A DNA stretch of 64,000 nt from an uncultured Acidimicrobiaceae bacterium (lineage in GTDB: Bacteria > Actinomycetota > Acidimicrobiia > Acidimicrobiales > RAAP-2). Below, piece by piece: positions 38,104-48,964 of the stretch (position 1 is the stretch's first letter; every line of letters starts with the position of its first letter). The stretch lies in contig CAWGYK010000005.1 in assembly GCA_963826835.1 (NCBI GenBank), positions 3,410 to 67,409 on the forward strand, written 5' to 3'. A program made the position numbers and the translations under genes. The notes under the pieces were generated by a model, which saw nothing but the letters and a program-made list of their open reading frames with translations, ran no database searches and was not told where the DNA came from.

Positions 38104-38329
38104 CCGCCGTCGCAACGGAGACTGTCCCTGTACGCCGGAACCTGGGCGCCTATGCGAGTGCCCCCCCTAGCCCCGAACGCCGGACTGGAGACCTGGTGGT
38201 CTGACAACGGTGCGGAATGATGCTGGACTTCGCGACCCCACCGAAGGAGTGACCGTCGGGCACCCGAATCATCCCATGGGCGTAGGAATGGCTCTTGGTC
38301 TCTTGAAAGGCGATCTGTAAGTTTAGGGA

Positions 38330-39622: not shown

Positions 39623-39663
39623 GGATCGGTCCGCAACTCGACCCCACCTTCACGCCGACCTAT

Positions 39664-40069
39664 CCCCGTACATTGATACTTCTCTGAGGGTCCACCGCTT
39701 GATTGCTGGTCCCAAATAGCTTCGGGAGTGCTGGCAGGTTCGGTCTGACTTGGAGTTTCGTGACGTTGCAAGACGTCGTCGACCGAGCCAACCAGCGGCA
39801 CTTTGACAGCGGCACGTCCCGTCTCCGAGTTGGGGTGATTGGCCCGGGTTGCTACCAACAACCTGGACCGCCCGTCGCTCCGATCCGGAACGGCCGTGCC
39901 ATCCCTCACACCAAAGGGAGAAGGGATGACCATGACCATCGTAGAAGCTGCGCGTGGTGTGACTGGTGGCGTCGGTACTCACCGACGTCCACGTCGCTGC
40001 CGCGCCCGATCCGCTTGGCGGGCTGCTCGGCACGGAGCGCTTTGCGACCGACTCCGCTGGCTACAAGGC
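39664..40069 (+). mobile_element. IS110-family left end fragment A: 262-nt non-coding leader plus the first ~48 transposase codons (frameshifted, truncated)
   Basis: 404/406 nt identical to the reverse complement of 46089-46494. MTMTIVEAARGVTGGVGTH, then out of frame TDVHVAAAPDPLGGLLGTERFATDSAGYKA (IS110 N-terminal GVDTH..D.HVAA signature). Confidence 0.8.
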
Positions 40070-40158
40070 CCGAACGCCGGCTCGGTGGGGCCCCTGGCGG
40101 CGACTCGAGCGACAGGCTTCCGTGATCTCAAACTGCCCCACTCCCAAGCGAGCAGACT

Positions 40159-40764
40159 GTGGCCGTGGACGAAGCGTCCGTCGATCCCAATCCGATGACC
40201 CAACTTTCCTGGTGGCTCGAGGTTGCGCGAACAGCTGGCGAGCCCATGCCCGAGGCGATGGCAGTTGCCACAGCCACGACCGAGGGGCGCCCGTCCTCGA
40301 GAATGGTGCTGCTCCGAGGCCTCGACCGCCGAGGTCTCGTCTTCTACACCGACCAGGAAAGCGACAAGGGCCGGGAGCTGAGGGCGAATCCATTCGCCGC
40401 TGCCCTCTTCCATTGGTTCCTCCCAGTGCACCGACAGGTCCGGGTGACTGGAGCAGTGGAGGAGGTCGATGACGATCAGTCGGACGCCTACTGGCAGTCG
40501 CGGCCGCCAGGGGCACGTCGTAGCGCCGTCGCCAGCCACCAGAGCAAGGTGGTCGTCACTCGAGCGGTGCTCGAACAGCGGGTGGCCGAACTGGCTGAAG
40601 CGTTTCCCGAGGAAACGGGGCCACCCCGCCCTCCTCGATGGGGCGGTTACCGGATCCGGCCTGAAGTTGTCGAATTGTGGGAGGAGGGAGCGGATCGCCT
40701 GCACGATCGGCTCCGCTACGAGGCTCAGGAGGGAAGCTGGAGGATTGAGCGGTTATCACCCTGA
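40159..40764 (+). CDS. pdxH: Pyridoxamine 5'-phosphate oxidase, probably 5'-truncated
   Basis: EPMPEAMAVATATTEGRPSSRMVLLRGLDRRGLVFYT, WQSRP, WGGYRIRPEVVELWE. Only about 12 aa precede the conserved core. The ORF opens 56 nt after the IS110 fragment. Confidence 0.75.
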   Translation: MAVDEASVDPNPMTQLSWWLEVARTAGEPMPEAMAVATATTEGRPSSRMVLLRGLDRRGLVFYTDQESDKGRELRANPFAAALFHWFLPVHRQVRVTGAVEEVDDDQSDAYWQSRPPGARRSAVASHQSKVVVTRAVLEQRVAELAEAFPEETGPPRPPRWGGYRIRPEVVELWEEGADRLHDRLRYEAQEGSWRIERLSP

Positions 40765-40915
40765 CAACCTGGGGGTAGGCACACGCATCGCGTAGTGCAG
40801 TGTCGGAGAGCGGTTCAAGCTGCCCCGTCGCCGGCTTTGTGTTGCCAGCACCTTGTTCTTGTCGAGGGGTGACGGCTAGGCGTTCCGCGGGGTGAATCTC
40901 TGAGGAACAGTCTTC

Positions 40916-41311
40916 TCACCCGAGCGCCACGGCATGGACCGGTCGCAGTGTCACGGTCACCCGTCCTTCGAGGGGCGCGTCGAAGCTTGCCAAGTCCATC
41001 CCGTAGGCACTGAGCACTTTCACCAGGGTGGTGAGTTCCGGATCGGACTCAATCGTGACGTCGCAGCGCACCTCGAGTGTTCGATAGGGATTGGCGGGGT
41101 CGATGACGAACACAGTCGCCAGGGGACGCTCCGTCAGGTTCTTCAGCTTCTGTCGGATGCCGGCGAGCGACGTTACGATCACATCGCCTTCGAGCACGAC
41201 CCACACCGCGGTGAGTTGCGGGTGGCCAGTAGGTCCAACGGTGGCCAAAGTCACCGGGATCGACCCTTCGAGCAGATCGCGATGCGATGTCGGGATGGCA
41301 ATTGAACTCAT
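40916..41311 (-). CDS. PPOX-class (pyridoxamine 5'-phosphate oxidase-like, probably F420/FMN-dependent) protein
   Basis: HRDLLEGSIPVTLATVGPTGHPQLTAVWVVLEGDVIVTS. ATG 41311. Confidence 0.7.
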   Translation of the reverse strand: MSSIAIPTSHRDLLEGSIPVTLATVGPTGHPQLTAVWVVLEGDVIVTSLAGIRQKLKNLTERPLATVFVIDPANPYRTLEVRCDVTIESDPELTTLVKVLSAYGMDLASFDAPLEGRVTVTLRPVHAVALG

Positions 41312-41530
41312 TGAGGCAGGGTACCAACACCCACTTAACCGGCCCGCAGGTCTGCCCGCCAATCCCGGCATCGCCGGCGGGCGATCCCGGCTTGCGAGTG
41401 AATCCTGACGCATCACCGAAACAAGGCCAATCGTGCTTAGGTGTCTCCTATCGCCGGCTTTGGGCATGTCTATTCCGGCGAGCCTGGATCCGGCTTTATC
41501 ACCGAGCCTGGCCTTTGCCTTGGGTGTGCT

Positions 41531-41842
41531 TCAGGCCTGAGCCGCAGCACGGTTAAGTCCTACGAACTCAGCGACATCCCACTGGGGCTCGATCTCAACG
41601 TACTCAAGAGTTCCAAGGGCCAGGATCTCGGCGACAGTGTTCATGGCTGACCGCTGGTCGGGATACTCGATCACCGAGGTCAAGGCAATACGGCTCGGTG
41701 AGTACGTGACGGCCTTGACATCTCCGCCATTCTTGGCGATGACCGCGTAGATCGCCGCAGTCTGTGCATCGTTCTGCTCGTCGCTGAGGTTCTCCCAGGC
41801 CGATGGAACCGGCCGGGTGCGGGAAAGCTCGGTGTAACTCAT
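41531..41842 (-). CDS. Hypothetical protein (103 aa; possibly GYD-like fold)
   Basis: AAAGGAG SD then ATG 41842. MSYTELSRTRPVPSAWENLSDEQNDAQTAAIYAVIAKNGGDVKAV. Confidence 0.45.
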   Translation of the reverse strand: MSYTELSRTRPVPSAWENLSDEQNDAQTAAIYAVIAKNGGDVKAVTYSPSRIALTSVIEYPDQRSAMNTVAEILALGTLEYVEIEPQWDVAEFVGLNRAAAQA

Positions 41843-42083
41843 GAAACACTCCTTTCGTGGGTGCCATCGGAGGCACGCAACGAGCATTGCGCGAGTAGCA
41901 GGTTCTGTCCACCGCGCCAGTGAGGAGTGCACTCACGCGTTTGACAGAGTGCCGCAGTACGCCGGGACTGGGGCCTCGGTTAGCGCGGCGACTGGTGCTG
42001 CCAGATAGCTATTACTCCCCGAGAGTTGCCCGCCAAAGAGGTAGCATTCGCTGCGTCCACGAGGTGCGAAGGGGAGAAAAGAG

Positions 42084-42476
42084 ATGCCTGAGTTCCCTGC
42101 GATTACTCACGTGGCGCTAACGGTTACGAGCCTTGAACGGAGTGTGCCTTGGTACAAGGATCTGTTCGGCTCGGACCCAATCCTTGACGAGGACACAGGT
42201 CCGTTCCAGCGCGTCGCTTGGCTTACTGGCGGCACAATCGTTGGCGTAACTCAGTTCCCTGACTTGGACAGCACTGAGCCGTTCAACGAGCGGCGGCCGG
42301 GGCTCGATCATTTGGCTTTCGGCTGTGCCAACCGCGATGAGTTAAAGGCATGGGAAATCCGTCTGAACGAACTCGGCATCCCCAACGGGGGCATCGTGGA
42401 CACGCCTTACTACTCGGCATTGTCGTTTCGAGATCCCGACAACATCGCACTTGAGTTCTTCGCACCCCGGGGCTGA
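42084..42476 (+). CDS. VOC (glyoxalase/bleomycin resistance/dioxygenase) family protein
   Basis: ITHVALTVTSLERSVPWYKDLFG, PGLDHLAFGC, ALSFRDPDNIALEFF. Confidence 0.8.
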   Translation: MPEFPAITHVALTVTSLERSVPWYKDLFGSDPILDEDTGPFQRVAWLTGGTIVGVTQFPDLDSTEPFNERRPGLDHLAFGCANRDELKAWEIRLNELGIPNGGIVDTPYYSALSFRDPDNIALEFFAPRG

Positions 42477-42686
42477 GGCCGGCACAGTATCCGACTGCTT
42501 ATAGACCATCCCCTAACGCATCGGGACGGTGGGGCAGCTCTGCCCGCATTCCGGGAACGGCGCCGAGTCCTCTCTAAAATCGAAGGGCATGCCACCGGAA
42601 GAGATCGAGGTTCCCGGTGGCTCGATCTCCATCGACCCGTATAAAGACGGTCGGCCATCCTGGTCTGGTCCAAGGCTCTGCTCTCC

Positions 42687-42974
42687 GTGTTTTGGCGCTC
42701 CTACTTCGCGGCCGAGCGGTTGAAGAGGGACATCGTCATCCGTGATGAGACTCGGCAATGGGTGCTCTATCGAGAGGGTCCGTATGACGGCATTACGGTC
42801 GCTCAACCATTGGAGCGCCTCCTAAGTGAAGTTCGGTCGAAAGGGCTGGATACTTTCTTGCGCACCCGCCAGGTCGCGGCCTCACAAGTTGGCCCGCTGG
42901 ATGTCCCGAGCAGGGTCGGTCTCTGGGGGCAGGTGTCGCCCTACTTGCCTGGCGCTAAGAAGGGTCACAAGTAG
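42687..42974 (+). CDS. Hypothetical ORF, weak support (may be the distal half of a frameshifted gene starting at ATG 42586)
   Basis: Open frame only, with moderate GC3. No recognisable motif. Confidence 0.2.
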   Translation: MFWRSYFAAERLKRDIVIRDETRQWVLYREGPYDGITVAQPLERLLSEVRSKGLDTFLRTRQVAASQVGPLDVPSRVGLWGQVSPYLPGAKKGHK

Positions 42975-42987
42975 CCGTCAAGGGCGC

Positions 42988-43039
42988 CCCCGTACATTGA
43001 CGCCGGACCTGGGCCCACCGTGCGAACACATAGGGGATA
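42988..43039 (+). repeat. Short motif copy c: CCCCGTACATTGA-CGCCGGACCTGGGC...CACATAGGGGATA
   Basis: The first 13 nt are identical to the first 13 nt of both IS110 fragments (39664-39676; reverse complement of 46482-46494). The 3' half resembles motif b and the 3' ends of the 270-bp repeats. Confidence 0.5.
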
Positions 43040-43131
43040 CGGAACAACCGTGAGTACGCGGCACCTGTGGCAGGTCCGGTAGGCAGCCTGCGCACCCGCC
43101 GGGCGCCAGCGGATCTCCCGGACACGCCCCT

Positions 43132-43824
43132 TCAGTGAGCTTCGACGTCAATGGACTTCGGGCGAATATCGGAAGCGAACATCGCTATGAGAACGACCAG
43201 CCACGCGCCGACGAAGATCATGCTTGCGATGACGTCGGTGGTCCAATGCACACCCAGCTCAATCCGTGAGAATGCCACAGCCGCCACTGCCAATGTCGCC
43301 AGTACCCATGCCAGGGTTCGGTAGCCCGATCTTGGGGCGATAGCCGCCACCACAAGCGCCAAGGTGGTGAACACCAGGAGGGCGACAGCAGTGTGACCCG
43401 ACGGCCACGACCAGCCATGCGCCGAGACGAGCCTGACATCCTGCGGTGGGCGGTCACGCTCGACTACGTGTTTGGCCAATGTCACGCCGCCGTTCTCCCC
43501 CGCCCAGGCGACGCCCGCCAGAACCACGGCGGCTATCGGGAGGCGCCGGCGGAGGGCCAGGACCACCAAGAGGATTCCGGTCGCCACGAGCGCGACCCAC
43601 GAACCGAGCCACGTCACAGTTTTCATCACCGCGTTGAGCGCCGGGGTCCGGTGAGCGACAACAACGGACGTTACGTGGCGGTCGAATGCGTTGACCGAGC
43701 TGGAATGCGTGACGCCCACGCCGGCCGCGATCAGGAGTCCGGTCAGGGCGACCCAGGCCAGGATGAGTACCAGGACTCGTATCGAGCGGCTGGGAGGCCG
43801 CCCGCCCTTATGTGTCGAGTCCAT
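43132..43824 (-). CDS. PAP2 superfamily phosphatase (membrane)
   Basis: KHVVERDRP (KxxxxxxRP), WPSGH, SRIELGVHWTTD. ATG 43824. Confidence 0.8.
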   Translation of the reverse strand: MDSTHKGGRPPSRSIRVLVLILAWVALTGLLIAAGVGVTHSSSVNAFDRHVTSVVVAHRTPALNAVMKTVTWLGSWVALVATGILLVVLALRRRLPIAAVVLAGVAWAGENGGVTLAKHVVERDRPPQDVRLVSAHGWSWPSGHTAVALLVFTTLALVVAAIAPRSGYRTLAWVLATLAVAAVAFSRIELGVHWTTDVIASMIFVGAWLVVLIAMFASDIRPKSIDVEAH

Positions 43825-43987
43825 GACGACGCCGGTCACTTCCGGCGGTCGACGGAGTTCGGTTCCTGCCATTCGGACGGGACCCCATCGCTGGTGTGAG
43901 CGATCAGCACCGCCCCATCCTCTCAGCGTCAGCGCCATACCGGTGATCCCAGTCGCCGCCGGGCCGGAGCTACTGATCTAGCCAGCC

Positions 43988-44302
43988 CTATTCAGAGCCC
44001 CAACCGCTGTCACGCTTCTGGTCCCGCCTCTTTTGCCGGTCCAGCTGGCGGATCTGCCGGATGCTCGCCAAATAGCCCCGTTCATGTTTGACGCTGGAAA
44101 TGTGCTCGACTTCTTCGGCGACGCCCTCTGTCTTCAGGGTTTCGAGGTTCGCCTGGAGCTTGCGGAGCTCTCGATCGCATTCCCGTTTCCGGTCATAAGC
44201 GGCAATCGTGACATTGCGGCGCTCATTCCTCTCAGGGTCGAACCGGAACCACTGCAAGATCCACCGGGTCCGACTGTCGTCGCTCGGGTCAACTTCAGCC
44301 AC
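43988..44302 (-). CDS. Hypothetical charged protein (104 aa)
   Basis: Open frame RWILQWFRFDPERNERRNVTIAAYDRKRECDRELRKLQANLETLK. No family recognised. Confidence 0.4.
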   Translation of the reverse strand: MAEVDPSDDSRTRWILQWFRFDPERNERRNVTIAAYDRKRECDRELRKLQANLETLKTEGVAEEVEHISSVKHERGYLASIRQIRQLDRQKRRDQKRDSGWGSE

Positions 44303-44370
44303 CGGTCAAGTCTGTCAAAGCCGAATACAGCGAGCTGACTGACTGCCCCCGTTCGCCGGGACGGTGGCGT

Positions 44371-44781
44371 TCAGGTCGTGATTTCACCAGTCGTCGCAGT
44401 AGGCGGGTCAGCAGGACTCGTCAGGGCAGCATCTGCGCGGTTCGCATCGCCATGGAACCGCCGGTGAATCCAAACCATCTCGCCATTCAGCTCGGTCTTT
44501 GACCAGATCCCTTTCACTGGGCCGAACCTTGTATTCCGAGGGAGGCGCCCGAGGACTTCTTTGGGAGTGGCCGTGAATTTACTCTGTCGCAGCACAACGA
44601 CGGAACGATCGGTGACCACGACATCGCGAGGCTTTCCCAGTATCAACATCAAGAGCCCTCCCCCCAGACCGACCATCCAGGGGTTTCCGGCCTGAGCAGG
44701 AAACACCTCGTGGATCGTCTCTCCTTGCTGCAAGAACGGCTCCGACCTGCTGCGGAGCTTGTCGCGTAGTGCCATGGCCAT
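44371..44781 (-). CDS. Hypothetical protein, bacterial PH-domain-like
   Basis: WMVGLGGGLLMLILGKPRDVVVTDRSVVVLRQSKF pattern. Confidence 0.45.
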   Translation of the reverse strand: MAMALRDKLRSRSEPFLQQGETIHEVFPAQAGNPWMVGLGGGLLMLILGKPRDVVVTDRSVVVLRQSKFTATPKEVLGRLPRNTRFGPVKGIWSKTELNGEMVWIHRRFHGDANRADAALTSPADPPTATTGEITT

Positions 44782-44790
44782 CCCCTTCGG

Positions 44791-45183
44791 TCACGTGGAA
44801 CATCCCTTCCCTGCAACCACCGTAATACCAGGTCCGCCGGCTGAAAATGGGAAATGCGGCCAGATCCAGAGGGAGGTCAGAGGGACGTCGCCTCCGATGG
44901 CTTCTGCAAGAACCCAAATCCTCAATTCGCAACTGCCGGGGTGCCCCCGTCCGCCGGGAGCAGGGCGCTTTCGTCCGGGGCGCTTGCGGATGCCTAACTG
45001 CCTCGACCGGCACCATGGTGCTAGTCGTCCGAACCGGGATTTCAACTCCGGGGTGAGACAATCGCTCGCCGCCGTGGGAGGGTCCGAGGCCGACAGACAC
45101 CATGGCGCGACGATACGCTCTCCGACCACGTCCTCTACAAAGCCATCGAGAGATGTGATCGCTGAATAGATCAGTTTGCCCAT
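44791..45183 (-). pseudogene. Dihydrofolate reductase-family (RibD C-terminal domain) gene, apparently decayed
   Basis: N-terminus MGKLIYSAITSLDGFVEDV is typical of the family, but the middle is Arg/Pro-rich nonsense and the product is about 50 aa too short. Confidence 0.35.
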
Positions 45184-45247
45184 GGCTGGACGCAACTCCT
45201 CGGTTTGGATCTTGGAACTCATCCTGCGACCTGAGAACCACCGACTG

Positions 45248-45300
45248 CCCCAGTACATTGCCGCCGGGAGGGTGGGACACTTCCACAATTGTGAGGGCAG
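45248..45300 (+). repeat. Short motif copy f (degenerate): CCCCAGTACATTGCCGCCGGG...
   Basis: Similarity to 42988-43039 read by eye. Weaker in the 3' half. Confidence 0.3.
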
Positions 45301-45368
45301 TCATCAGGTGCCCGAGTGGCCCTAGTTCGCGGAAGCGACACGTGCGAACGTCCCCGCGCTAGAACGAC

Positions 45369-45809
45369 TTGATGGCCTACCATCTGATGACTAACCACGA
45401 AGTGAATACCTTTCTTGCGTCTAATCCAGCTCGCCCTGGGACGCTCGCCACCACCCGAGTCGATGGGCGGCCACACGTCGCTCCAGTTTGGTTTGTGACC
45501 GACGACAACGGGGACATCGTCTTCAATACAGGCAGAGATACCGTGAAGGGTCGAAACCTCGCCCGAACGCTCTTTGCTGCTCTTTGCGTCCAAGATGATC
45601 GAGCTCCGTATTCGTTCGTAACGATCGAAGGGTCTGTAGTTCTTTCCGAAAACCTGGAAGAGGTTGGCAGGTGGGCCACAATTATCGGCGGCCGCTACAT
45701 GGGAAAGAGTCGGGCCGAAGAATTCGGCGCACGGAACGGGGTCAAGGGAGAGCTTCTCGTCCGACTCCACCCAGATCGGATCGTGTCAGCGGCAAATGTC
45801 GCAAGTTGA
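45369..45809 (+). CDS. PPOX-class (pyridoxamine 5'-phosphate oxidase-like) protein
   Basis: ARPGTLATTRVDGRPHVAPVWFVTDDNGDIVFNTGRDTVKGRNL. Confidence 0.7.
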   Translation: MMAYHLMTNHEVNTFLASNPARPGTLATTRVDGRPHVAPVWFVTDDNGDIVFNTGRDTVKGRNLARTLFAALCVQDDRAPYSFVTIEGSVVLSENLEEVGRWATIIGGRYMGKSRAEEFGARNGVKGELLVRLHPDRIVSAANVAS

Positions 45810-45869
45810 TGGATTCGGTAGCCCCGAACGCTGCCGGGTCCGGGGTCATACCGGCGGATGCTCGTCGAT

Positions 45870-46494
45870 CTAGCGTTGGGGCCATGGCCCGCAAGAATGG
45901 CCCGAGCGACGAGGACTACGACAGTGCCGCCCGCCTCAGTCTGCTCGGTCTGACCGCAGGCAAGGAAGCGGACGTGGACTCCATCATGGAGACGGCGCAG
46001 GTAGCGGGTCAGTCCCGACCCGTACGAGCCCGTGCCCTCGATGCCGACCTTGGTCACGTCGCCGAAGGACTCGAGCCAGGCCAGTAGCGCCTTGTAGCCA
46101 GCGGAGTCGGTCGCAAAGCGCTCCGTGCCGAGCAGCCCGCCAAGCGGATCGGGCGCGGCAGCGACGTGGACGTCGGTGAGTATCGACGCCACCAGTCACA
46201 CCACGCGCAGCTTCTACGATGGTCATGGTCATCGCTTCTCCCTTTGGTGTGAGGGATGGCACGGCCGTTCCGGATCGGAGCGACGGGCGGTCCAGGTTGT
46301 TGGTAGCAACCCGGGCCAATCACCCCAACTCGGAGACGGGACGTGCCGCTGTCAAAGTGCCGCTGGTTGGCTCGGTCGACGACGTCTTGCAACGTCACGA
46401 AACTCCAAGTCAGACCGAACCTGCCAGCACTCCCGAAGCTATTTGGGACCAGCAATCAAGCGGTGGACCCTCAGAGAAGTATCAATGTACGGGG
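45870..46494 (-). mobile_element. IS110-family left end fragment B: same leader, about 105 degraded transposase codons, inverted relative to fragment A
   Basis: 46089-46494 is the reverse complement of 39664-40069 with 2 mismatches. It continues LLAWLESFGDVTKVGIEGTGSYGSGLTRYLR...ARAILAG with extra frameshifts. The lower boundary is approximate. Confidence 0.75.
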
Positions 46495-46594
46495 CAACTC
46501 CGAGTCAGCCGTCGTTACCACCAGAATCGAGGGGTTCGGCGAGGTGTCGCCACCGTCTCCATTCCGCTTCGGGACCTGAATCCGATAGCCGGGT

Positions 46595-46957: not shown

Positions 46958-47216
46958 GCCGCGAGCTTACCAAGGGGCCCGAGGAGAACAACGTTTGTGG
47001 CATCGGGCGGGTAGTACTCCCGTCGCCGTCAATGTGCCACTGGGCGGCACTCCGGTCCGGCGTACGAGGGCAGCCTGGTCCGTAGATAAGGCATGGCCTC
47101 AAGGAACGGATCGCGAAGAATCCCGCTCTCTTTTGGCACTGCAATGTCCTGGCTGATGTTGTCGCGACAAGTGCGCTAAAGAGAGTCCTACCTGAGACCA
47201 GTGGCGAGGAGGGTGG

Positions 47217-47951: not shown

Positions 47952-48082
47952 CACGATGTCAGGTGACTATTGGTCAATCGCTCGGTACGGGGGTGCAAAC
48001 TATGGGTTTACGGATCCCAGAATCGGTGGCGATCAGTGCCCACATCCCGGCATACTGGCCAGCCCCCCGCACCGGGTCAGCC

Positions 48083-48871
48083 TCAAGCGAGGGTGGCAGT
48101 CGTAAGCGTCACGACGAGCGGCCTCGTGACGATGCCGCCAAACTCGGTCCGTATGAGGGACTCCAGCTCGTCGAGGAGACCCGCTCGGGCAGGATCTTCC
48201 ATCATCTGGGTGCCAGAGTACGAGAGCATCAAGTTTCGGTAGTCCGTTGCGCTGTATGTCTGGTTCCAGTCGTACCGACGGACGGCAACAGAGTCGAAAC
48301 GGCGATCTGCGTCCAGCACTGCACGGATCGCTGGATCAACGCTTCCACGAGGCGGGGCAGGGGGTCCCGTGTGTCCCTGTCCATACCGCTCGTATATCGG
48401 CTGACCAGCGGCGAAGAAGCCCGCATCGTCGGGCGAGTCGACTTGGATGAGGTCGACGACCGCCACGAGGCCGCCCGGTCGCAGGATTGCAGCGGGCCGG
48501 TCGGTCTGTGCCTCCTGGGGAATCCAGTGGTAGGCAGTGGCGGAGAACACGGCGTCGGCCTCACCGGCCTTGATCTCCATGACTTCGAAGTCACCGACTT
48601 CTATGCGTAGCCGATCCGAAAAGAGGTTCGAGCGCAACTTAGCGGCCATCTCAGGACCGATCTCGATGGCGAGCACCGACGCTTCTCGGGCAAGGAGATC
48701 CTTCGTGGCCTGGCCCGTTCCGGGACCGACCTCCACGATTTCCGGCTGAGACGGCAGCATCTGAAAGAGGGCGTCGAAGAGGTCGGTGGGATAGGAAGGC
48801 CGCACCTTGTCGTAGATCTCAGCGGCCTCGTTGAACGAAAGTCTGATGTCGTCTGGTCGCACTCTCACCAT
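48083..48871 (-). CDS. Class I SAM-dependent methyltransferase
   Basis: Motif I IVEVGPGTGQAT. LRPGGLVAVV. ATG 48871. Confidence 0.8.
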   Translation of the reverse strand: MVRVRPDDIRLSFNEAAEIYDKVRPSYPTDLFDALFQMLPSQPEIVEVGPGTGQATKDLLAREASVLAIEIGPEMAAKLRSNLFSDRLRIEVGDFEVMEIKAGEADAVFSATAYHWIPQEAQTDRPAAILRPGGLVAVVDLIQVDSPDDAGFFAAGQPIYERYGQGHTGPPAPPRGSVDPAIRAVLDADRRFDSVAVRRYDWNQTYSATDYRNLMLSYSGTQMMEDPARAGLLDELESLIRTEFGGIVTRPLVVTLTTATLA

Positions 48872-48964
48872 CTTGCCCGAGTCGGACCCACTGCCCCCAT
48901 GGTGCCGCATGGTGGCACCCAGTCCCTGCGTTCGGAGACAGACAACTACTCGGTCTACGCACTT

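Follow-up and report, generated by a model that had tools for sequence, protein, structure and literature searches.

Relics of an IS110-group insertion sequence at the borders of a 6-kb segment in an uncultured Acidimicrobiaceae genome

The window, a 64,000-nucleotide stretch of DNA from an uncultured Acidimicrobiaceae bacterium, contains two inverted stubs. We interpret them, with a probability of about 0.85, as the decayed remains of two copies of a single insertion sequence (IS) of the IS110 group that no longer work as transposons. Both stubs have lost the enzyme gene and the right end of the element, which argues for ordinary decay of mobile DNA and not for a working gene-capturing transposon. 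The one activity that they might plausibly retain is RecA-dependent flipping of the 6 kb that the 406-bp arms enclose.

Two truncated copies with a common frameshift

Positions 39664-40069 and the reverse complement of 46089-46494 form the 406-nt inverted repeat of the original prediction, recovered at exactly the same coordinates. The arms mismatch at 2 of 406 positions (G/C at 39924 and G/A at 39975), are spaced 6019 nt apart, and lose their identity sharply at either end. The predicted 262-nt non-coding leader and the transposase start behind it were also re-found, with an ATG located 262 nt downstream of 39664 and the N-terminus MTMTIVEAARGVTGGV(G/D)TH.

Copy A retains the first 48 codons of the recombinase gene (39926-40069, forward strand) and is cut at element position ~406; both this length and the distance of 89 nt from its end to the start of pdxH agree with the original description. 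It carries an Asp-to-Gly change at the first catalytic Asp (39975) and a 2-nt deletion after 39983. Copy B has the same 2-nt deletion (after 46175) and retains the first ~80 codons (45993-46232, reverse strand), with ~90% identity to intact copies. It had been credited with ~105 degraded codons, but only the ~80 codons ending at 45993 are IS-derived; past element position ~505 the copy is fused to unrelated DNA, which makes up the remainder of its open frame. PF01548, the DEDD (RuvC-like) domain of the N-terminus, matches copy B in the shifted frame (E 3.4e-7, profile positions 9-68). Neither window copy has PF02371, the C-terminal Tnp domain with the catalytic Ser, and it is missing from the entire assembly as well; intact relatives carry both PF01548 (E 1e-17 to 4e-21) and PF02371. 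Where intact relatives read ..DTH(L/R)D(V/L)HVAA.., the window copies are each 2 nt short behind the His codon; the two deleted letters are present at 46174 in contigs of relatives from a public run. The common frameshift is therefore real when judged against intact relatives and against these contigs. Both arms are, as proposed, 5' fragments of IS110-family elements from one already frameshifted lineage, and the window copies are relics of IS110 members, not complete members.

The intact element and its palindromic target

IS110 elements have no inverted ends, target REP sequences, transpose through a circle and have a left end that encodes a bridge RNA (PMC11208160, PMC11208158). The expectation that intact relatives exist and define the ends of the element was borne out in congener genomes. 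Pairs of copies within the same genome delimited a unit of ~1535 bp, comprising a structured left end of ~260 nt, a 347-aa DEDD/Tnp recombinase and a right end of ~215 nt. No inverted pair links the termini of an intact relative, in agreement with the earlier remark that IS110 elements lack classical inverted repeats. The element is present in 22 of the 24 sampled congeners, in many of them as multiple copies, and its recombinase has more than 543 relatives among species representatives; no prior description of this uncultured Acidimicrobiaceae IS110 lineage was found. The intact copy anticipated elsewhere in the same genome was missing from its 67%-complete assembly, although relatives hold such copies. 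Neither the window nor the assembled genome contains right-end DNA or DNA coding for the recombinase C-terminus, and the 3.06-Mb assembly holds no further IS110 recombinase (PF01548). Since 67% of the genome is assembled, an intact copy or a recombinase could sit in the unassembled part.

The specific target of this IS110 lineage is a REP-like palindrome with the consensus CCC[AC]GT[AT]CGCCGGGAC. In 70+ copies the left junctions are identical, as are the right ones, and every copy lies inside this one palindrome type, with palindrome halves outside the junctions; the left flanks of 70+ copies have TGCCCC..GT[AT]C in common, and sister subfamilies insert 3 nt apart within the same palindrome. 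Each stub starts with the element's true left end, within the left half of such a palindrome. Left half and core read ..TATCCCCGT-AC at site A (39656-39671, forward strand) and ..GTTGCCCCGT-AC at site B (46487-46502, reverse strand). In the closest relative, G011, the site A palindrome is unoccupied and located downstream of the same gene; in another relative, G053, site A is occupied by an internally deleted remnant that retains both ends. Empty palindromes are seen in relatives as well as in the window, which has an unoccupied one at 38115-38147 (forward strand) and further REP-like copies at 41942-41974, 44336-44368, 44934-44966 and, on the reverse strand, 47053-47077. A loose regular expression for the palindrome gave 162 matches genome-wide against 131 in shuffled sequence, mostly chance; only the good matches (<=3 mismatches) cluster, in the window region and at 539-553 kb of contig C6.

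Two REP-like copies on the forward strand contain 6-nt inserts, ATTGAC at 42981-43015 and ATTGCC at 45243-45278, and are possible footprints of lost IS copies. In ATTGAC, a core-like dinucleotide follows the four letters with which the IS left end begins. Three palindromes of this genome contain inserts of this form, the initial 4 nt of the left end with a second core-like dinucleotide behind them. None was found in palindrome context in the five relatives searched, so that the excess of CATTG.CGCCGG noted earlier is not in palindrome context outside this genome.

The stubs probably arose in two steps. A frameshifted lineage would have given two copies through trans mobilisation, or gene conversion would have homogenised them; both of these, as well as some other duplication, are possible sources of the second frameshifted copy. 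Illegitimate deletions would later have stripped copy A of all sequence 3' of element position ~406 and copy B of all sequence 3' of ~505, recombinase gene and right end included. One of the joints, that of copy A, lies at the edge of the neighbouring palindrome upstream of pdxH (40070-40105, forward strand), whose left edge is joined to the truncated IS with the short microhomology AAGG/GC.

The present order might instead have been produced by inversion between inverted IS copies, with the 406-bp arms still flipping the segment by homologous recombination. Inverted arms of 406 bp at 99.5% identity are an adequate RecA substrate, and relatives differ strongly in how genes are ordered around the locus; G053, for example, has the DUF998 gene on the opposite side of the NAGPA gene, with its orientation reversed. 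An inversion, however, leaves the truncations and the duplication unexplained, and we consider it an unlikely account of the locus.

The leader as a candidate bridge RNA gene

A conserved structured RNA in relatives is homologous to the 254-nt leader, which is therefore most likely the bridge RNA gene of this IS110 lineage. The window has two copies of this bridge-RNA-like gene. The copy A leader (39672-39925, forward strand) is intact in sequence but misses the junction promoter; the copy B leader (46233-46486, reverse strand) differs by one private change, located at 46234 within the ribosome-binding region. RNAalifold predicted 56 pairs from leader alignments A1 and A3, 13-15 of them with compensatory changes. 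Pairing was possible in 97% of cells, compared with 32-48% in controls with slid partners, and the sense strand folds at -58.7 kcal/mol versus -43.6 for the antisense. Every position invariant across 25 relatives is retained in both window leaders, and the copy A leader deviates at only two positions where all 13 family-A relatives agree. The long leader of the original prediction corresponds to the conserved, structured, non-coding left end, the part that encodes the bridge RNA in the IS110 family. A scan of the leader against Rfam with E up to 10 gave 0 matches.

In a bridge RNA, the strands of two internal loops pair with the left and right target and the left and right donor, core included. 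Such guide segments were sought by gapless wobble pairing scans, by visual comparison of subfamilies A, A2, B and C, and by mutual information of leader columns with donor ends. The resulting signals mainly reflected phylogeny, the palindromic target and the right donor's overlap with the -10 box. Because no guide segment has a convincing target or donor match, the name bridge RNA rests on homology of position, structure and family-level knowledge. Several short leader motifs resemble the IS termini or target. CAUUGA is the reverse complement of TCAATG (core plus right donor), with a perfect match in subfamily C and 5/6 in the window's subfamily; GGAG-UC resembles the left donor GGAGC-TC, and YCCCGU the left target CCCCGT. 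All three are candidate guide strands only: the target is palindromic and near-invariant, and neither the scans nor mutual information were decisive.

Reconstruction yielded a junction promoter in 71 of 73 relatives, the right end supplying TTGACA and the left end nAnnnT, with a spacer of 17-18 nt. In intact relatives this promoter would be rebuilt only in the excised circle, across the junction of right and left ends (RE-LE); the window copies therefore have neither promoter nor enzyme nor donor junction. The suggestion that the leaders may still specify such an RNA stands as far as their intact sequence is concerned, but falls short at the promoter. Its -35 box lies in the right end, which the window copies miss, so the junction promoter cannot form there, and no sigma-70-like replacement was found upstream of the window leaders.

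It is quite improbable that the leaders function in trans as read-through bridge RNA serving an intact recombinase in the unassembled third of the genome. The bridge RNA of IS621 does act in trans (PMC11208160), and retention of all the invariant positions would fit such a role. Against this stand the absent promoter-like site, the count of 0 IS110 recombinases in 3.06 Mb and the consideration that nothing selects for such an RNA once the element is gone.

The segment between the stubs and comparison with known systems

The 6 kb between the stubs begins with pdxH (PNP/PMP oxidase; 40159-40764, forward strand; PF01243 and PF10590). The gene had been described as 5'-short but is full length: in G003, which has no IS at this place, the orthologue shares both its start and the palindrome upstream. 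The rest of the mosaic (40916-45809) contains PNPOx-fold genes at 40916-41467 (reverse strand) and 45369-45809 (forward strand), a VOC gene at 42084-42476 (forward strand) and a PAP2 gene at 43132-43938 (reverse strand), all assigned by Pfam, together with a GYD-like gene (41531-41932, reverse strand; sub-threshold GYD match) and unassigned small ORFs. Of the cargo originally listed, pdxH, the two PNPOx-fold genes, VOC and PAP2 hold, but the DHFR-like gene was not found: the search used PF01872, whose matches lie only on contigs C2 and C6, and Pfam gave no match for it on the local ORFs. No conserved order was seen at 35-51 kb among 40 congeners, and therefore no ancestral arrangement can be reconstructed.

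Genes bracketed by inverted IS copies, as well as the recent report of expanded cargo-carrying IS110 loci (bioRxiv 10.64898/2026.08.14.744561), invite the reading that the stubs delimit, or once delimited, a composite or cargo-carrying IS110 unit, one which took up the 6 kb and can move it. This is very improbable. For an IS110 element to move, a left and a right end must lie in direct order and make up the RE-LE donor junction; the stubs instead present two left ends facing each other, and right end, recombinase and donor junction are absent from the window and the assembled genome. Moreover, pdxH has retained its ancestral upstream palindrome, and pieces of the 6 kb map to different contigs in the 40 congeners. 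As the mosaic does not move as one block among relatives, we reject the composite-transposon-like capture of the original prediction; paired IS copies with a transposase, functional ends and cargo moving as a unit, which characterise a composite transposon, were not found here. An assembly artefact, with one IS fragment placed twice or the segment mis-joined, is scarcely credible even for a metagenome-assembled genome, in which repeats are error-prone: the arms differ in private substitutions and truncation points, each outer flank has orthologues in relatives that stop at the junction, and contigs from two unrelated public runs, of two other studies, span both outer junctions with 0 differences, a support that applies to the outer junctions only and not to the inner ones at 40069/40070 and 45992/45993. 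Among the public sequencing runs searched, none holds the stretch (best share 0.17 of sampled words, contigs only).

Two decayed IS110-group copies thus remain the best explanation, and the finding is an ordinary one: site-specific IS relics in a rearranged, repeat-rich stretch, not gene capture. Its value is modest: it draws attention to an IS110 lineage that is abundant in soil and bog Acidimicrobiaceae and has yet to be characterised. The ends of this lineage are clearly delimited, its palindromic target is defined, its junction promoter is conserved and its leader RNA of ~245 nt covaries, and it could be of use to bridge-recombinase mining. It also includes members with an intact recombinase that lack an entire RNA domain. 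We suggest only tentatively, and with low confidence, that 3-nt-offset subfamilies, RNAs short of one domain and possible excision footprints make the lineage a natural experiment in bridge-RNA design. If so, the 6-nt inserts would be off-register, half-match excision footprints of an enzyme otherwise described as scarless.

Composite transposons such as Tn10 and IS26 units likewise have inverted IS-derived repeats around unrelated genes. In contrast to these, the window has no transposase and no outer and inner functional ends, and the IS110 mechanism uses no paired inverted ends. The leader resembles the bridge RNA (seekRNA) in being encoded by the left end's sense strand, in the stretch from the tip of the element to the start of the recombinase, and in having ~245 nt with a 5' hairpin and two stem/internal-loop/hairpin domains with covarying stems; it differs in that some relatives with an intact recombinase lack the entire first domain. 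Like the IS110 group (IS621 of E. coli; ISPpu9 and ISPpu10 of Pseudomonas putida), the relatives encode a DEDD RuvC-like and Tnp (PF02371) recombinase, have no inverted ends, are site-specific in a REP-like palindrome with a 2-nt core, and carry a long structured left end before the gene and a sigma-70-type promoter split between right and left ends. Unlike those elements, they reside in uncultured Acidimicrobiaceae, their core is apparently [A/T]C instead of CT and their right end is also long (~215 nt); the window copies are truncated, frameshifted relics.

Two truncated copies of a widespread IS110-group element

Re-examination of the repeat confirmed the originally predicted pair of inverted IS110 fragments. 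The arms (39664-40069 and 46089-46494) are 406 nt each with a spacer of 6019 nt, and mismatches occur only at positions 39924 and 39975; identity is lost sharply at all four borders. The arms are the sole copies in the assembly (3.06 Mb, 11 contigs, 67% complete). Contigs from one bog run and one soil run span both outer junctions without differences, and none of the public runs searched contains the whole stretch. With its frameshift bypassed, copy B (45993-46494, minus strand) matched the Pfam family DEDD_Tnp_IS110 over profile positions 9-68 (E 3.4e-7).

Of 24 congeneric genomes sampled, 22 carry the element by DNA search, frequently in multiple copies. A protein-based scan of species-representative genomes recovered 543 or more relatives; the 80 highest-ranking come nearly all from metagenome-assembled genomes of uncultured Acidimicrobiaceae/Acidimicrobiales. 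Intragenomic copies are 99.2-99.9% identical across ~1530-1537 bp and unrelated beyond, which sets the element boundaries. The protein of intact copies is 347 aa long and contains both PF01548 and PF02371, and no inverted repeat connects the two termini. Targeting of REP sequences, absence of inverted ends and movement via circles are well-established traits of the IS110 family (PMC11208160). Two arrangements were observed at left ends in relatives. In one genome (L016-L018; G001:C2 near 226, 423 and 645 kb), three copies of another ~1.28-kb element, one of them inverted, lie within the IS left end at position ~30-35. In another (L086/L028; G022:C1 near 1.11 Mb), the left flank of one copy reads ..GATAGGAG-AT, a right-end-like tip resembling what a circle junction or tandem would give.

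Both window copies are damaged. Intact relatives carry the motif ..GGVDTH(L/R)D(V/L)HVAA... Copies A (39664-40069, plus strand) and B are both 2 nt short following the His codon of this motif, and relatives' contigs from a public run have two additional letters at exactly this site. Copy A has also changed its first catalytic Asp to Gly, and a change unique to copy B lies in its ribosome-binding region. The two copies follow the IS for different lengths, A as far as element position ~406 (40069) and B as far as ~505 (45993). The 3.06-Mb, 67% complete assembly contains neither a right end nor C-terminal coding DNA, and PF01548 has no further match there.

Insertion ends and the palindromic target

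On the left, insertions in relatives join CCC[CA]GT[AT]C to ATTGATACTTC; on the right, GATAGGAGC(G)TC is joined to GCCGGGAC... Joining the flanks restores a palindrome, CCC[AC]GT[AT]CGCCGGGAC, unoccupied examples of which exist in relatives and in the window. Read most simply, these junctions suggest a core of two nucleotides, [A/T]C on the target side and TC on the donor side. Both window stubs start at the left junction. The palindrome of site A is empty in the closest relative (adjacent NAGPA-domain gene 95% identical), and a more distant one (G053, L031:6800-7450) has an internally deleted remnant there that keeps both ends. Joint A, the inner border of copy A, adjoins the left edge of a palindrome 5' of pdxH. 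In one relative the palindrome and the start of pdxH are the same but the IS is absent, so that pdxH is complete and not 5'-short as had been proposed; the same comparison marks joint A, judged from its sequence, as an illegitimate joint with short microhomology, 8-9 nt from the recombinase core.

A sister subfamily of 1558 bp (L039-L043, L050, L051) inserts 3 nt deeper in the same palindrome, with junctions ..GT[AT]CG-CC-AATGATG on the left and GGAGCA-TC-GGGACGG on the right, so that target register has shifted naturally between leaders that are homologous. Close matches to the REP-like palindrome are clustered rather than genome-wide, at 35-47 kb of the window and at C6:539-553 kb of the same genome; the two clusters share a 516-bp segment of 93% identity (window 41449-41964, C6:544602-545114). 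Three palindromes (window 42981-43015 and 45243-45278; C4 of the same genome near 760-800) carry a 6-nt insert, ATTG[A/C]C, right after GTAC, which matches the four outermost nucleotides of the IS left end and a second dinucleotide resembling the core. These look like footprints of lost IS copies. IS110 excision is described as scarless, and five relatives showed no such insert within a palindrome.

The leader and its fit to a bridge RNA

The non-coding leaders (39672-39925 in A, 46233-46486 in B) were compared with those of relatives in two alignments, A1 and A3, of 20 and 27 leaders from four subfamilies. The aligned leaders share a predicted fold with an enclosing helix GAGGG/CCCUC and a 5' hairpin. 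In the predicted first domain, a closing stem is accompanied by a long loop strand on the 5' side and by a hairpin that covaries. A conserved linker, GCACAUUGA, leads to a predicted second domain, which has an inner as well as a closing stem, a pair of loop strands and again a covarying hairpin. RNAalifold returned 56 pairs, 13 with compensatory changes. A separate count on the same structure gave 97% paired cells and 15 covarying pairs, versus 32-48% and 3-7 for slid partners, and the antisense strand folds worse than the sense strand. When the right end is joined to the left end, TTGACA, a 17-18-nt spacer and nAnnnT appear in 71 of 73 relatives having both ends, the -10 box lying at the very start of the left end. 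This arrangement matches that of IS621, whose bridge RNA is expressed from the same kind of junction promoter (PMC11208158). Thus, the position, size, architecture and promoter logic of the leader fit a bridge RNA. Rfam contains no model matching it. A bridge RNA is defined by loops that pair with target and donor; the leader has candidate segments for this, but the target is palindromic and near-invariant and the right donor is also the -10 box.

The suggestion that the window leaders may still specify a guide RNA is partly upheld: they fit a bridge RNA and retain all positions invariant among 25 relatives, but the -35 box is missing from them, and the search for a replacement promoter was negative.

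Some relatives (L121, L124, L128 and the G053 site-A remnant) have a short hairpin in place of the entire first leader domain (~50 nt). They represent a subfamily with an intact 347-aa recombinase, of which certain genomes hold several copies; either the first domain is dispensable or such copies borrow the RNA of others. In one relative, 14 nt of the second leader hairpin (L014:798-811) are 93% complementary to a stretch just past the recombinase stop codon (1925-1938), a possible long-range pairing of the left and right non-coding ends.

The 6-kb segment and the history of the locus

The segment between the stubs holds pdxH, two more PNPOx-fold genes, a GYD-like ORF, VOC, PAP2 and ORFs of no assigned family. 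The gene content predicted earlier largely stands, its PPOX-class genes being the PNPOx-fold pair, except for the DHFR-like gene: no RibD_C-type gene was found in the 6 kb. Its proposed capture as a unit is rejected, as its pieces lie on separate contigs in 40 congeners. Some of these pieces occur repeatedly or show unusual conservation, 41449-41964 has its 93% copy on contig C6, and an IS481 element lies in the neighbourhood. The stretch is prone to rearrangement and rich in palindromes, and the 6-kb segment within it is a mosaic. A VOC-containing block (41950-42536, ~590 bp) starts at a palindrome, is 93-97% identical in many congeneric species, far above neighbouring genes (~80-90%), and occurs twice in some genomes; it may be a mobile cassette. 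A methyltransferase gene (48037-48918, minus strand, 275 aa) has 99% and 97% copies on C8 and C1, three in the genome.

The original interpretation thus holds for the IS110 5' fragments and their shared frameshift, but not for transfer of the 6 kb. We infer two insertions in opposite orientation into two palindromes from an already frameshifted source lineage; the copies would have been mobilised in trans, or homogenised later via gene conversion. Each has gained one private change since, and deletion would then have removed the 3' part of each. Recent work describes IS110 loci that are expanded and rearranged, with inversions among the changes (bioRxiv 10.64898/2026.08.14.744561). Those loci depend on donor boundaries and the enzyme, whereas the window locus has neither, and its stubs are two orphaned relics of an already known element type.
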